Shown here: in pieces, positions 57,001 through 64,000 of the stretch
Numbering within the stretch: the stretch's first letter is position 1
Layout: every line of letters starts with the position of its first letter
Origin: Phycisphaerae bacterium
GTDB taxonomy: Bacteria > Planctomycetota > Phycisphaerae > UBA1845 > Fen-1342
Direction: 5' to 3'
NCBI GenBank assembly: GCA_963675745.2
Contig: CAXXWX010000024.1
Span: forward strand, 1 to 64,000
DNA: 64,000 nucleotides
Program-made: the position numbers

Positions 57001-60000
57001 GCCGCCGCTCAGATCCAGATCCTTCGGCCAGCGGAGAATGAACATATACGAATAGCCCATGGGCGACATCCGCCGCACGCGGAAGCCCATGGCCTCAGCC
57101 TCGTTCATGCGCCATTCGTGGGCCAGTTCGCGGCTGGTTGTGTTTGTGCCACGGTCGCGCTTGAGCTTGTATATCTTGACGACGATCGTGCCGGAGACGA
57201 AACAGCCCTTGGACTTGAAATCGGGCGCCGTGCCGCCTGGGGTAAAGAGGGCAACCATCCGAAATCCGACCGCGCTGCCCATCTCCAGCAGCCACGGAGG
57301 CTCGCGCCAGTATGTGTAGATCGCCGTGATATCGTCGCGGGTGGCCACGTCCCTGGCGTCAAAAATCTCACCCGTGGCCGGTGGCGCCTTGGGGGGGGTC
57401 GCGCATGAGGTGGCAAGTAAACCTGCGAGTACACTACTGAGCACAAGCATTCCGGCGCGGCCAGAGGGCATCAACACTCTCCCGTTTGTCATCGCATGCT
57501 GATGCCGCGGTCCGGCATCATGGCTGATCGTGTCCCAGCCGCGCGATCGGCAGATCATAGCTTACATCAGCCGGGTCGTTTGTGTGAATCTCGCGCCGCA
57601 GTGAGCGCAGGTTACCCAGCGGGCCATACTCTTCGCTGCCGACCTCTTCGCGGATTTCCTGGATGTCATCCTTGGGGAACGGCCCCAACTCATCGTATTC
57701 ACCGGGCAGCAGGTTTTCGGGCTGCACGCGCAGGTTGTTCATCAAGGGGTTGGTCAAAACATGTTCCGGCAGCGTGCCGGTGGCGTCGCGCGCGGCGACC
57801 GAAATCTCACGATAGTCGTCAACCGTGCGGATGATGCGCGGCGTCATGATAATGAGCAGTTCGGCCTTTCTGGTGGTCGTGTCATCATAGCGGAAGAGAT
57901 TCCCCAGCACCGGGACGTCGCCGAGGACCGGAACCTTGGATTCGGTGCGTTCGTCTCGTTCCTGGATCAGGCCGCCGAGCACGACCGTCTCGTTGTCGCG
58001 CACAGTCACGACGGTCTCGGCCAGGCTCTCCCGGAAGATAGGCGCGGTCAGGCCCGGGCCGACCTCGATGGTCGAGTCGGTCAAGTCCGAAACTTCCTGC
58101 GTGATCTCGAGCCGCACATAGCCGTCGGGGTTGATCTGCGGCGTGACGTTGAGCTTGATGCCGACGTCCGACCGCGCGACCGACGTGGTGATCTGGCCAC
58201 CGACGGTGGAAGTGCTGCTCCCCGATACGTACGGCACGTCGTTGACGACCTCGATTTTGGCTGCCTGGCCGTCCATTGCCACGATGTGCGGTCGACTTAG
58301 CACGTTCAGGCCGGTCTCGGTCTGGAGCGTGCGGAGCAGGAAGTTGAAATCGCGGCCTGTGATGGTAAACGAGAAGCCACCCAGCCCGGTGCCGACGGCG
58401 CCGATGTCCGTTCCGCCGACATAGTCGAACGTGGTGGTGTCGGACGGGCCGGCCGCGGCGAACTGAAGATCCTGGAACGCGAACTCGACGCCGAGTTCGA
58501 GCGAGTTCTCCATGGTGACTTCGACGATCAGAACCTCGATGCTGACCTGGGGAGGCGGCTGATCGAGTTCATTGACGATATCGAAGACCTCGGTCTCGCG
58601 GCGCGGATCAAAGCTGATAATGACGCGATTCGAATCTTCCGCGGCGATCGCGACGATCTCGCGTTCGAGGCGGCGTTGGGTGGAGATGTCATCGCCGAGC
58701 TCGTCAAGCAGCGTTTGCTCGGCGTCGCTGTAATCGACAAGCGATGCCACCAGGCTTTCCACGGGCGTGTTGCGGGGCGCGTAGACGACCGTCTTGCGCT
58801 CCTCGATGGGTTTGCTGTCCAGTGAGAGGATCAGCTCTTCGGCGATGTCGAGATAGCCGGGCGTACCGGCGGCGATCACAGAGTTCGTGCGCACGTCGGT
58901 GTTGAATCTGATCTGCTGCCGGCCGCCGGCGCCGAGCGCCCCCATCGTCAGTTGGCGCTCTTCATTGTCATCGCCGGTACCCTGAGACGTCTCCTCAAAC
59001 AGCGGTTCCAGCATCTGGACCATCTGCTCGGCGTCGGAGTTGCGCAACGGGAAGACGCGGATCGTCGCGTCGCTGGGGATGATGTCGATGGCGGCGACGA
59101 GCGATTCCATCAGCGGCATGCTCTCGGCGGGCGCGACGATCATCAGCGAGTTTGTGCGCAGGTCGGCGGTAACGACGATGTTCTGGCGCATGGCCTTGAA
59201 GGTCTGCGGTCCGAGATCGGGATGCTCGGTCTGGAAGATGAGCATGACGTCGCGGAGCGTGTCGCTGCCGCCACCGCCGCCCCGGCCGCCGCCGCCGACA
59301 GCGCCGCCCTGGCCTTCGAGGATGTTCATCAGCAGGTCGCCGGCATCTTCGGCGTCGGCCTGCTTGAGCTTGAAGCTCTTGACCACCGCAACGGCCTGCG
59401 GATCGATGTCGTCAAATCGGCGCACGATATCCTCGATATCCTCGAGCAGAGCCGGCGGGCCGATTGCGACAATCGAGTTGGTGGTCGGCTCATGCGTGAC
59501 GGTCAGGTCAACATCCTCGCCGGTGTTCTGGAACAGGTCTTGCAAGCTGTCGGCCAGCTCCTCGGCGCTGCGCTGCCTGAGCGGCAGGATGCGCGTCATG
59601 CGGCCGATTTCCGAAGGTTTGTCCAAAATCTCGATCCAGCGCTCGATCATGACCATGTCTTCGCGCGACGCCGCCAGCAGCAGGCTGTCGGAGATCGGGT
59701 CCGCGGCGATGTGGATCGGGGCGCCGGTCAGGTTCGACTCCTGGTCCGACAGCGTCTTGTCGATCATGTCGTTCAGGCGGGCGGCCACATTGGCGGATGA
59801 GTTCAGCCGCACCTTGACCACCTTGAACTCGACGGTCGGCTCGAACTGCTGGTCGAGGTTGGTCACCAGGTCCTTGGCTTCCTCGAGGTAGTCGCGCGTG
59901 CCGGTCAACACCAGCGAATTGCTGCGCCCGTCGGCGATAACACTGAGCGTGTCGTTGGCTTGCGTATCGGTCTTCTGGCTGGCGTCTTCCTTGGCGTCGA

Positions 60001-63000: not shown

Positions 63001-64000
63001 CCTCGGCGATACCAAAGACCATCACGGAATTAGTGGTTGTCTCGGGGACGGCGTTGACCTTGAGCTCACCGGCGCCCGTACCGCCGCCGGGAGTCGTCGA
63101 GCGTCGGCCGCGTCCCTGTCGCCCTTGCGGCTGAGCGCCGGCAGCGCTCACCGACATGCTGTTAATCGCGTCGGCGACGATGGTGGCGTCGGCCAGCTCC
63201 AACTCGAAGACGCGGAAAGCGGTCTTGAGCCCTGAAGGCGTGGCGACATCAACGCTTGCGAGGACTCGCTCAACAAACAGGAACGTCTTCTCAGAGCCGA
63301 CCACCATGATGCTGTTCGTGCGGGCGTCGGGCACAACGGTGAACGGGTCGAAACTCGGCATGTTGCCGGTTATCTGCGACATCTGCCCGTATTCCTGGAT
63401 CGCGCCGTCGAGCGAGGCTTTGACGGTGTCCGCATCAGCGTGTTCGAGCGTATAGCGGCGGATCTGGAGCATCTCATCGGGCCGGTCGAGCAGGGCGACC
63501 ATTTCCTCGATCTGCTCGAAAACGGGATCGGAGGCGCGCACCAACAGCTTCTGTGCGTTTTCATCGCCAAGGATGACCGTACCTCCGCCGGTCGCACCGC
63601 TCGTATTGCGCGATCCGCCGCGGACGCGCCGGTTGCCACCACCTGTGGAGATGGTGGTGCCGCCGAACATCTGGCTGAGTTTCTCGGCGAGCTCCTCGGC
63701 GTCGGCATACACCAGGTCGATGTCACGGAATGCCTGGCGGGCGCCTTCATCAAAATCGCGAATCTTGGCGAGGATGATCTCACGCTTATCGAGCGGACCC
63801 CATACCACAATCGCATTGGTCGACGGCTCGGCGACGATGCGCACTTCCGAAGTCGCACTGCCCCCGACAGCGCCGCCGCCGCCGCGGCGTGGGGCCGCCC
63901 GCCCCGCGCCCTGCTGGCCATAGATCGCGGTCGCCACGTCGGCGATTGACTGCGCGTCGCCATATTGACACACGTAGGTCTCGGCCTCGTTGATCATGCC

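Follow-up and report, generated by a model that had tools for sequence, protein, structure and literature searches.

Gene layout and frame breaks

The window analysed here, the first 64,000 nucleotides of contig CAXXWX010000024.1 (C24) from a Phycisphaerae bacterium of the family Fen-1342 (genome G000), ends inside a giant secretin gene on the minus strand, and a lipoprotein gene lies at the 3′ end of the secretin gene. The features of the locus, including three sites beyond the 64-kb window on the same contig, are listed in Table 1.

Table 1 Features of the giant secretin locus (contig coordinates, identical to those of the window up to 64000).
Feature	Position	Strand	Description
Lipoprotein gene	56902..57558	(-)	ORF from first ATG; likely start Met at 57492, 25 nt past secretin stop
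Giant secretin gene, 3′ part	57518..64000	(-)	2,160 codons plus stop, open to window edge; continues to contig position 68762 and past contig end
C-terminal tail, about 100 residues	57521..57826	(-)	Partly conserved in alignments A1 and A4; motifs near end include YGP and SYD-P
Secretin pore domain, PF00263	57827..58327	(-)	170.9 bits, cut-off 27.5 (piece 4 residues 2185-2351); 176.8 bits in genome scan
Block C, 11 back-to-back N-domains adjoining pore domain	58562..61396	(-)	Own N-domain profile; collinear orthology
Linker 2, 287 residues	61397..62257	(-)	Low complexity (Ala, Pro, Arg, Glu rich), high GC; not alignable to relatives
Block B, window part	62258..64000	(-)	Six full N-domains and one weak partial match; continues past window edge
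Assembly error 1	64682		One base less in read-based contigs; seen in X1 and X2
Assembly error 2	65076		One base less in read-based contigs; X1 only
Assembly error 3	68355		One T more in read-based contigs; single X1 contig only, unitigs break there

On the contig's minus strand, the secretin is spread over four ORFs of 2,420, 156, 1,067, and 199 aa whose ends overlap. The corresponding stop-to-stop frames (2,453, 160, 1,170, and 199 aa; frames 1, 0, 2, and 0) agree with the gene calls g03103-g03106, which the genome-wide survey's note had taken for pieces of a single secretin gene. We compared contig positions 64399-68762 with the Logan contigs of runs X1 and X2, leaving out run X3, which gave just two 151-nt pieces, and found the three one-base indels of that note again. 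Each indel falls within the overlap of adjoining secretin frames, and when all three are applied by script, the stop codon closes a single open frame of 3,747 codons that begins at the contig edge. The four calls thus belong to one gene, and the frame breaks are one-base assembly errors. Because X1 and X2 represent one sample from one study, this comparison tests the assembly and not another strain. No RNA data set was listed among the three runs found.

The same indels could also be read as a gene that is really broken in the organism, either a pseudogene or a secretin split over several genes, with the read contigs derived from a co-occurring intact variant. The third indel, carried by a single contig from a single run at a unitig break, leaves room for a mixed population at that site; word depth in the read-based data is low (about 5-9), and breaks occur in relatives too (frames of 4,012 and 884 aa in the six-contig genome G040, and one TAG each in G037 and G022). 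However, all three differences sit exactly in the narrow overlaps that allow a frame-switch rescue and jointly restore the long frame, and none of the run contigs bridging sites 64682 and 65076 carries the assembly's version. Moreover, the broken pieces are collinear with intact relatives, and the N-domains flanking the breaks are intact. We regard a truly broken gene as very unlikely. Repeat collapse was also considered as the origin of the breaks and was rejected, because long or near-identical DNA repeats are absent from the gene: its closest direct repeats span 33-38 nt and share 64-76% identity, beside one 52-nt tandem array. Assembly indels and gene callers easily break giant secretin genes, opposite which very long antisense open frames were also observed.

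About 570-600 N-terminal codons of the G000 secretin lie beyond the contig end, and with them its start codon, signal peptide, and N0 domain. A tblastn search of the whole G000 assembly with the N-terminal parts of the secretins of G009, G020, and G001 returned only the own repeats of contig C24. Judged from the relatives, the missing codons would encode a signal peptide, a low-complexity stretch, the N0 domain, and further N-domains.

Domain architecture of the giant secretin

Pfam places one Secretin domain, at the C-terminus, and 26 Secretin_N stretches in the four pieces (16 in piece 4, nine in piece 2, and one in piece 1), while piece 3 holds a partial stretch at 26.5 bits, under the cut-off of 28.2. 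A 67-position N-domain profile built in this analysis finds 37 matches in the mended frame, 35 of them strong. The two methods agree on a single C-terminal pore domain after an extreme array of N-domains, as had been claimed; the earlier figure of at least 24 Secretin_N domains is correct, though an undercount beside 26 and one partial by Pfam and 35-37 by our profile, against which the Pfam count also falls short. The gaps between N-domains are 6-15 residues, mostly 7-10. Five consecutive block C domains modeled with AF2 form five beta-alpha-beta-beta-alpha units (pLDDT 77.6, pTM 0.63), and the best Foldseek matches of this model are ExeD, GspD, EpsD, PulD, and XcpQ, with E-values down to 2.9e-10.

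In the secretins of the Fen-1342 family, two low-complexity linkers of 85-350 residues interrupt the array, leaving about 15-27, 9-11, and 10-12 N-domains in its three blocks. At the site of linker 2, the relatives have linkers of their own, 122-352 residues in length. A hidden double frameshift was considered for linker 2 and rejected on the assembled sequence: the other two forward frames contain 9 and 12 stops, and only the reading frame is open. The tail that follows the pore domain is a candidate S-domain-like tail.

Identity as a type II secretion system secretin

Model scores and structural relatives support the reading, already given in the survey's note, that the gene encodes a GspD, the outer-membrane pore of a type II secretion system (T2SS). 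The GspD model TIGR02517 scores 359.6 bits on the last 800 aa, above its cut-off of 351.35 by a small margin, whereas the models for PilQ (TIGR02515, 184 bits, cut-off 284.35), SctC (TIGR02516, 161.1 bits, cut-off 238.45), and MshL (148.6 bits, cut-off 250.2) all remain under theirs. Among solved structures, the best sequence matches are GspD, PulD, and XcpQ with E-values of 1e-76 to 1e-66 (best GspD 1.1e-76), compared with 3.6e-40 for the best PilQ and 1.6e-15 for the best type III secretion secretin, InvG. Many PilQ members carry AMIN domains at the N-terminus; Pfam reports no AMIN domain in the four assembled pieces, which begin downstream of the gene's own N-terminus. The N0 domain PF21305 scores above the cut-off in the secretins of G024 (33.7 bits) and G157 (28.3 bits) and weakly in that of G001 (16.8 bits), and is not reported in G020 or G195. 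N-terminal stretches of intact relatives resemble signal peptides when judged by eye.

The operon context in relatives is consistent with this assignment. In G001, the order is GspF-GspG-...-GspJ-GspK-PilM_2-(membrane protein of about 440 aa)-giant secretin. The corresponding order in G157 is GspE-GspF-GspG-pseudopilin-GspK-PilM_2-x-giant secretin, and that in G195 is GspF-pseudopilins-GspK-like-PilM-like-x-giant secretin. T2SS genes upstream of the secretin, as described before for one relative, are thus seen in these three genomes, while none lies directly upstream in G024 or G035. In G000 itself, the start of another contig, C13, carries pseudopilin<-GspG<-GspF, with DUF6941 further in, in the order of G001 and running off the contig start. 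We infer from these two contig ends (C13 and C24), which no sequence joins, that the genes would form one operon in G000.

Some points favor a role of the secretin outside type II protein secretion, in a type IV pilus, in competence, or in another filament system. The protein encoded upstream is of the PilM_2 type and has no Pfam match to GspL, T2SS and type IV pilus machines have most parts in common, GspE is absent from the visible part of the operon in G001 and G000, and the sole characterised many-ring secretin is a PilQ. Nevertheless, the GspD equivalog model is above its cut-off with the PilQ model well below, T2SSK and T2SSJ domains are found in the G001 operon and T2SSK in that of G157, some relatives have a GspD-type N0 domain, and Pfam does not report an AMIN domain. 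In addition, G000 encodes another secretin, of 622 aa, on contig C6 as part of a separate PilB-PilC-PilM-PilN-PilO cluster. We consider such a function highly improbable, the least likely of the alternatives weighed here.

Conservation and distribution

The survey's note had described a homologue throughout the family, and our larger sample extends this to all 41 sampled family genomes, G000 included. An uninterrupted frame of 3,965-5,220 aa holds the C-terminal match in 26 of the 40 relatives; G037 has a 4,948-aa frame with one TAG inside this match, and in the remaining 13 the secretin is cut by contig ends or breaks. The giant size claimed for intact relatives was borne out, with measured lengths of 4,000-5,200 aa, and the eight that were counted have 36-52 N-domains. 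Beyond the family, the gene is present in six of nine sampled genomes from other families of the class. Secretins of other Phycisphaerae families have 41-49 N-domains and either lack linkers or have one gap of about 80 residues. Of 191 genomes sampled in other Planctomycetota classes, none has the gene. A database search yielded 305 clusters of 4,294-5,000 aa, and a 3,030-aa form of the giant secretin is encoded in a complete genome (locus L086).

The last 25 N-domains pair one-to-one and in order with those of G001 and G020. The mean best-partner identity of these ortholog pairs is 47%, with a score of 161 versus 40 for other pairs, whereas N-domain paralogues inside one protein are about 30% identical. 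Block C is best conserved, at 50-62% identity to relatives; the N-terminal block shows 30-40% identity, and its collinearity is not strict. The array is old, its last 25 domains having individual orthologs in matching order in other genera. The N-domains are individually conserved, and domain number would therefore be under selection.

The downstream lipoprotein

The lipobox Cys of the lipoprotein is residue 52 of the ORF, and the protein belongs to no Pfam or NCBIfam family. A copy is found in 40 of 41 family genomes, in agreement with the earlier observation that a conserved lipoprotein follows the secretin gene; 40 of 41 copies lie directly downstream of a giant secretin, and G018, which has two giant secretins, has a lipoprotein beside each. 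The AF2 model (pLDDT 91.6) is an Ig/FN3-like beta-sandwich. The best Foldseek matches in the PDB are unrelated beta-sandwich domains (E 8.5e-4, TM 0.39-0.41), and a wide VIA-align search gave FN3/Ig-like domains with a best Z of 7.8, a value that chance arrangements also reach. The structure matches listed include no known pilotin, PilP, or GspC HR domain. A 180-aa lipoprotein downstream of the G195 secretin has no profile similarity to the lipoprotein alignment A3 (hhalign probability 0.2%).

In T2SSs of the Klebsiella or Vibrio type, a pilotin lipoprotein binds the C-terminal S-domain of the secretin. A complex prediction for the lipoprotein (A3 residues 18-167) and the secretin tail (A4 residues 90-200) gave a score of 0.00 against a mark of 0.32, which speaks neither for nor against such a pair. 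The lipoprotein probably assists the adjacent giant secretin, as an accessory or assembly factor.

A proposed long periplasmic neck

If the giant secretin assembles from 12-15 protomers into a gated outer-membrane channel, as GspD does, every layer of N-domains would form a ring under the pore, giving a periplasmic neck of about 40 rings. This ring stack is inferred from the role of the N-domains in solved secretins, and at 3-4 nm per ring it would be of the order of 120-160 nm long. The neck would connect the outer-membrane pore with the inner-membrane platform (GspF and the PilM/GspL-like and GspM/C-like proteins) and would enclose a pseudopilus of GspG and GspJ/K-type minor pilins. The two disordered linkers may serve as hinges or slack between the three neck blocks. 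Overall, we consider it fairly probable that the locus encodes the giant GspD of a T2SS-like machine, in a gene broken by the assembly, with a long neck of many rings.

The further proposal of the survey's note, that the neck bridges an unusually wide periplasm, is unsupported, and the literature on Phycisphaerae is mildly against it. According to a 2025 review, the internal membranes described from other planctomycetes "appear to be absent in Phycisphaerae" (PMC12673574), and the cells of the cultured Phycisphaerae strain KS4 are given as about 0.6 µm across (PMC7783415). A straight tube of 120-160 nm would take up a large share of a 0.6-µm cell and be hard to house there. The two long linkers in the family do not fit a continuous rigid tube either, and a simple stack of that kind would not predict them.

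These observations bear on a different arrangement of one and the same GspD-type secretin, in which most N-domains are not a straight stack of closed rings. The 12-15 long N-terminal arms might fold back or coil, splay as flexible tethers or as a cage under the outer membrane, or form a bendable hose through the periplasm to a distant inner-membrane platform. The family-specific disordered linkers that cut the array into three blocks would suit such an arrangement, as would the restriction of high conservation to the pore-adjacent block; the small cells, known from one cultured strain, and the reported absence of internal membranes likewise speak against a straight tube. On the other hand, the short linkers between neighboring domains resemble those of a tightly stacked rod, the pTM of the five-domain model suggests defined packing between domains, and the arrays of other Phycisphaerae families hold 41-49 domains with no linker or a single gap of about 80 residues. 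N-domains form rings in every solved secretin, according to the available text of PMC5745081. We therefore hold a non-stacked array to be unlikely, although it is far more probable than a broken gene or a pilus secretin.

Returning to the stacked neck that we favor, its full form would be a Phycisphaerae T2SS conduit of a kind not seen before. About 40 rings (in the family, as many as 52) would be stacked into a multi-megadalton tube exceeding 100 nm in length, inside which the pseudopilus would work. In the family, the tube would have two disordered hinges and a dedicated beta-sandwich lipoprotein. We put this complete picture forward tentatively and somewhat doubt that all of it will hold. 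If the tube is true, either the periplasm at the secretion site of these small cocci would be far deeper or differently organised than reported, or the tube would run sideways as a hose between distant membrane sites.

Comparison with known secretins

Few bacterial outer-membrane machines have been studied as thoroughly as secretins, and the pores studied so far have three to six ring-building domains, against about 35-40 in the giant secretin. With the T2SS secretins GspD, PulD, XcpQ, and ExeD (PDB 5wq7, 6hcg, 5wln, and 6i1x; TIGR02517; PF00263, PF03958, and PF21305), the giant secretin has the C-terminal pore and the beta-alpha-beta-beta-alpha N-domains in common. Giant secretins of some relatives also match GspD-type systems in their N0 domain (G024 and G157) or in their position at the operon end (G001, G157, and G195), after GspF, GspG, GspJ/K-type, and GspL/PilM-like genes. 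The giant secretins differ in domain number, with 35-37 N-domains in the assembled part of the G000 protein and 36-52 in intact relatives versus N0-N3 in GspD, PulD, XcpQ, and ExeD, and in size, with 4,000-5,200 aa versus about 650 aa. Long disordered linkers inside the array occur in this Phycisphaerae family but not in these four secretins, and the beta-sandwich lipoprotein beside the giant secretin has no specific likeness to any listed solved structure.

Our literature search, which covered papers without their supplements, found none that describes giant secretins. In the accessible part of a preprint on giant genes (10.1101/2023.11.21.568195), gspD is named only as a neighbor of Omnitrophota giant genes, and the available text of PMC11131199 contains nothing on secretins. 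The expansion of N-domains to tens of copies in a GspD is apparently undescribed in the literature searched. It raises the structural question of how such a neck is housed and how the pseudopilus works over that distance.

In the literature searched, as far as the available text of PMC5745081 goes, the sole characterised expansion of ring number is the PilQ of Thermus thermophilus, whose six rings make the largest neck. This 757-aa protein has six stacked rings, N0-N5, in a 350 Å complex, and its authors explain the extra rings by the need to span a wide periplasm, most of which the complex spans (PMC5745081). The T. thermophilus complex has been visualised both by cryo-EM and in situ, whereas the giant secretins are known from genes. 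PilQ of T. thermophilus serves type IV pili and DNA uptake, and the giant secretin appears to be a GspD. Extra N-domain rings would be common to both, six in T. thermophilus versus about 40 proposed here.

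A giant secretin gene broken by the assembly

An open frame on the minus strand reaches the window edge, and four open pieces with overlapping ends lie on this strand along the full contig of 68,762 bases. The number of Secretin_N stretches reported by Pfam is one for piece 1, nine for piece 2 and 16 for piece 4, while the single partial stretch in piece 3 is under the Pfam cut-off; the Secretin pore domain is located in piece 4. These counts show that the genome-wide survey's note was correct in describing four overlapping same-strand pieces with Secretin_N arrays and one Secretin domain.

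Coordinates of the giant secretin pieces, selected regions and neighboring genes (contig numbering)
Feature	Positions	Strand	Length	Remark
Open frame in the window	57518-64000	minus	2,160 codons
Piece 1	68762-68166	minus	199 aa stop to stop	frame 0
Piece 2	68487-64978	minus	1,170 aa stop to stop	frame 2
Piece 3	65129-64650	minus	160 aa stop to stop	frame 0
Piece 4	64879-57521	minus	2,453 aa stop to stop	frame 1
Low-complexity linker	61397-62257		287 residues	high-GC stretch
Five modeled N-domains	59072-60322
Lipoprotein gene	56902-57558	minus		no Pfam or NCBIfam family
MreD-like gene	56210-56737	minus

The same note had regarded the pieces as one gene of more than 3,700 codons interrupted by three one-base assembly errors. 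Three public sequencing runs contain giant secretin DNA, and most of it is present in X1 and X2, which derive from one sample in one study. At contig position 64682 (14683 in the fetched locus L002), read-based contigs of both X1 and X2 have one base less than the assembly. One base is also missing at 65076 (L002 15077) in X1, and no X2 contig bridges this site. At 68355 (L002 18356), where unitigs end, the indel is one additional T in a single X1 contig. All three sites are inside the short overlaps between adjoining frames, and when a script applied the three indels together, 3,747 codons could be read as a single frame, without interruption, between the contig edge and the stop codon. The X1 and X2 contigs and the mended frame thus bear out the proposed errors, with reads that probably come from the sample used for the assembly and serve as a check on the assembly, not on another strain. 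Repeat collapse as the source of the breaks is ruled out, since no long or near-identical DNA repeats were found in the gene. The giant secretin is one gene, broken by the assembly.

Domain architecture of the mended frame

A 67-position N-domain profile, built by iteration from two Pfam stretches, matches the mended frame 37 times (35 strong matches). The N-domains lie back to back with spacers of 6-15 residues, mostly 7-10, and form three blocks of 15, 11 and 11 domains, separated first by an 85-residue stretch and then by the low-complexity linker. This linker is rich in Ala, Pro, Arg and Glu, and its reading frame is the sole open frame in that region. After the last block, the protein continues with the pore domain and ends in a tail some 100 residues long. 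Of these parts, the window contains the linker, pore domain and tail, along with 17 complete N-domains and a weak, partial match. Since residue 1 of the mended frame aligns with approximately residue 572 of the protein of G009 and residue 600 of that of G020, two relatives of the same family, about 570-600 codons are missing at the 5' end, and no other contig of the source assembly was found to contain this part.

The AlphaFold2 model of five consecutive N-domains, based on an alignment of 15 orthologues, consists of five beta-alpha-beta-beta-alpha units (pLDDT 77.6, pTM 0.63). In the PDB, Foldseek matched it best to T2SS secretins (E down to 2.9e-10), namely ExeD, GspD, EpsD, PulD and the N-domains of XcpQ; the global TM-scores are low, as expected because the multi-domain arrangement differs. 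A profile of the last 600 residues retrieved solved GspD chains first (E 1.1e-76 to 1e-66); PilQ came next, with E values no better than 3.6e-40, and then T3SS secretins (1.6e-15). Among the NCBIfam models compared with the last 800 residues, the GspD equivalog model scored narrowly above its cut-off (359.6 bits against 351.35), and the protein fell well below each cut-off of the PilQ, SctC and MshL models. The giant secretin is a GspD secretin whose N-domain array is expanded roughly tenfold.

Conservation and distribution of the array

The last 25 N-domains of the source protein have their best partners in the same order in the relatives G001 and G020, with a mean identity of 47% and a mean score of 161 against 40 for other domain pairs; within the protein, the N-domains are only about 30% alike. 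Collinearity with these relatives is less strict for the first nine or so domains, and only the last three keep their order in G195, a genome of another family. Because the partners are ordered one to one across relatives, the domain number does not stem from recent repeat expansion. Each N-domain position is retained within the family, and the array is old and constrained.

The giant secretin occurs in all 41 sampled family genomes, including the source genome. Of the 40 relatives, 26 have their C-terminal match inside an uninterrupted frame of 3,965-5,220 aa; one of these is G009, whose 4,451-aa frame (L022, G009:C36) runs off the contig start. The remaining relatives are G037, with one TAG inside the match, and 13 copies cut by contig ends or breaks. 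Eight relatives fetched in full have 36-52 N-domains each in the three-block layout with two variable low-complexity linkers, except G029, with two blocks of 27 and 25. By eye, the N-termini are signal-peptide-like, followed by low-complexity sequence. Pfam places a GspD-type N0 domain above its cut-off in G024 and in G157, and weakly in G001; it reports none in G020 or G195.

Several copies have peculiarities of their own. G009, of the same genus, has a run of N in the frame and 15% X in linker 1, and is not a clean full-length reference. G018 has two giant secretin genes (G018:C10:7636-12688 and G018:C1:15307-20219; frames of 4,022 and 4,649 aa). The copy of G040, an assembly of six contigs, is split into frames of 4,012 and 884 aa (G040:C1:2102535-2109801), and G022 (G022:C68), like G037 (G037:C51), has one TAG inside the match. 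Stop-free frames of up to 3,486 aa run antisense to giant secretin genes (L016:4399-14856, plus strand; L015:3552-8801 and L021:3764-11203, minus strand); these frames can mislead gene callers and most likely result from high GC together with codon bias.

Sampling 200 other genomes of the phylum gave frames of 3,942-5,073 aa in six of nine genomes from other families of the class, and the five of these that were fetched have 41-49 N-domains with almost no linker. No frame above 1,606 aa was found in the 191 genomes of other classes (E <= 1e-30). Public protein collections contain 305 related clusters of 4,294-5,000 aa, automatically named 'secretin N-terminal domain-containing protein [Phycisphaerae bacterium]' or 'type II secretion system protein D'. 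Nearly all named records are Phycisphaerae or Planctomycetota MAGs, and a 3,030-aa form occurs in one complete genome whose title bears no MAG mark. Giant secretin proteins are therefore already in public databases under automatic names, and a non-exhaustive literature search found no description of them. Beyond Planctomycetota, the pore-domain end is matched most closely by loci from Armatimonadota MAGs (Fimbriimonadaceae, Chthonomonas; L084, L087-L090, L092-L100 and others), with 31-39% identity in the pore domain only.

Operon context and the downstream lipoprotein

The giant secretin is the last gene of the G001 operon, after GspF, GspG, an unknown 382-aa protein, GspJ-like and GspK-like proteins, a 556-aa PilM_2 protein and a membrane protein of about 440 aa. 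G157 has the order GspE, GspF, GspG, pseudopilin, GspK, PilM_2, unknown protein and giant secretin, and the closed genome G195 is similar. T2SS genes are not directly upstream in G024 and G035, where unrelated genes are located. Taken as a whole, the analysis shows one gene for a GspD-type secretin that has tens of N-domains and is tied to T2SS genes in relatives.

In the source genome, the upstream DNA falls outside the contig. Another of its contigs, C13 (L029, G000:C13:1-12000), begins inside a pseudopilin gene that is cut off by the contig start; GspG and GspF precede this gene, and a DUF6941 gene is located deeper in the contig. Since this gene order matches that of G001, C13 and the secretin contig are probably neighbors, with roughly 9 kb missing between them. 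A separate type IV pilus-like cluster (L030, G000:C6:30000-49999) comprises T2SSE ATPase, T2SSF, PilM, PilN, PilO and pseudopilin genes; facing it are a TPR protein and the cluster's own secretin, an ordinary STN-secretin of 622 aa. In total, five genes with a Secretin domain and 13 T2SSE matches were counted in the genome.

The lipoprotein gene was found in 40 of the 41 family genomes, with 41 copies in all, of which 40 directly follow a giant secretin in the same orientation. G018 has one after each of its two secretins, G011 lacks the gene, and in G036 it lies on a different contig. Its structure model, confident at pLDDT 91.6, is an Ig/FN3-like beta-sandwich, for which no specific solved relative was found. 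In G195, a 180-aa lipoprotein directly follows the giant secretin (L117:136-678, plus strand), with no detectable similarity to the family lipoprotein (hhalign probability 0.2%). Given the linkage of the genes, the lipoprotein may reasonably be regarded as a candidate assembly factor or accessory of the secretin. The MreD-like gene just downstream of it has the same position in G001.

Possible length and shape of the neck

In solved secretins, the N-domains form stacked rings under the pore, and each GspD ring is about 3-4 nm high. By analogy, the giant secretin complex would carry about 40 rings, which would give a neck of 120-160 nm. Live alternatives to a straight tube are a conduit that is bent, hinged or runs laterally, and arms that fail to close into rings, because internal membranes appear to be absent in Phycisphaerae according to a statement in a review (PMC12673574), one cultured Phycisphaerae strain is described as a coccus about 0.6 um wide (PMC7783415), and long disordered linkers interrupt the array in the source family. 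For comparison, the Thermus PilQ complex is described as six rings and a pore domain with a length of 350 A, and its authors associate the additional rings with a wide periplasm (PMC5745081). These dimensions correspond to at most about 5 nm per layer. Thermus PilQ has six rings, whereas the giant secretin would have about 40 by analogy.
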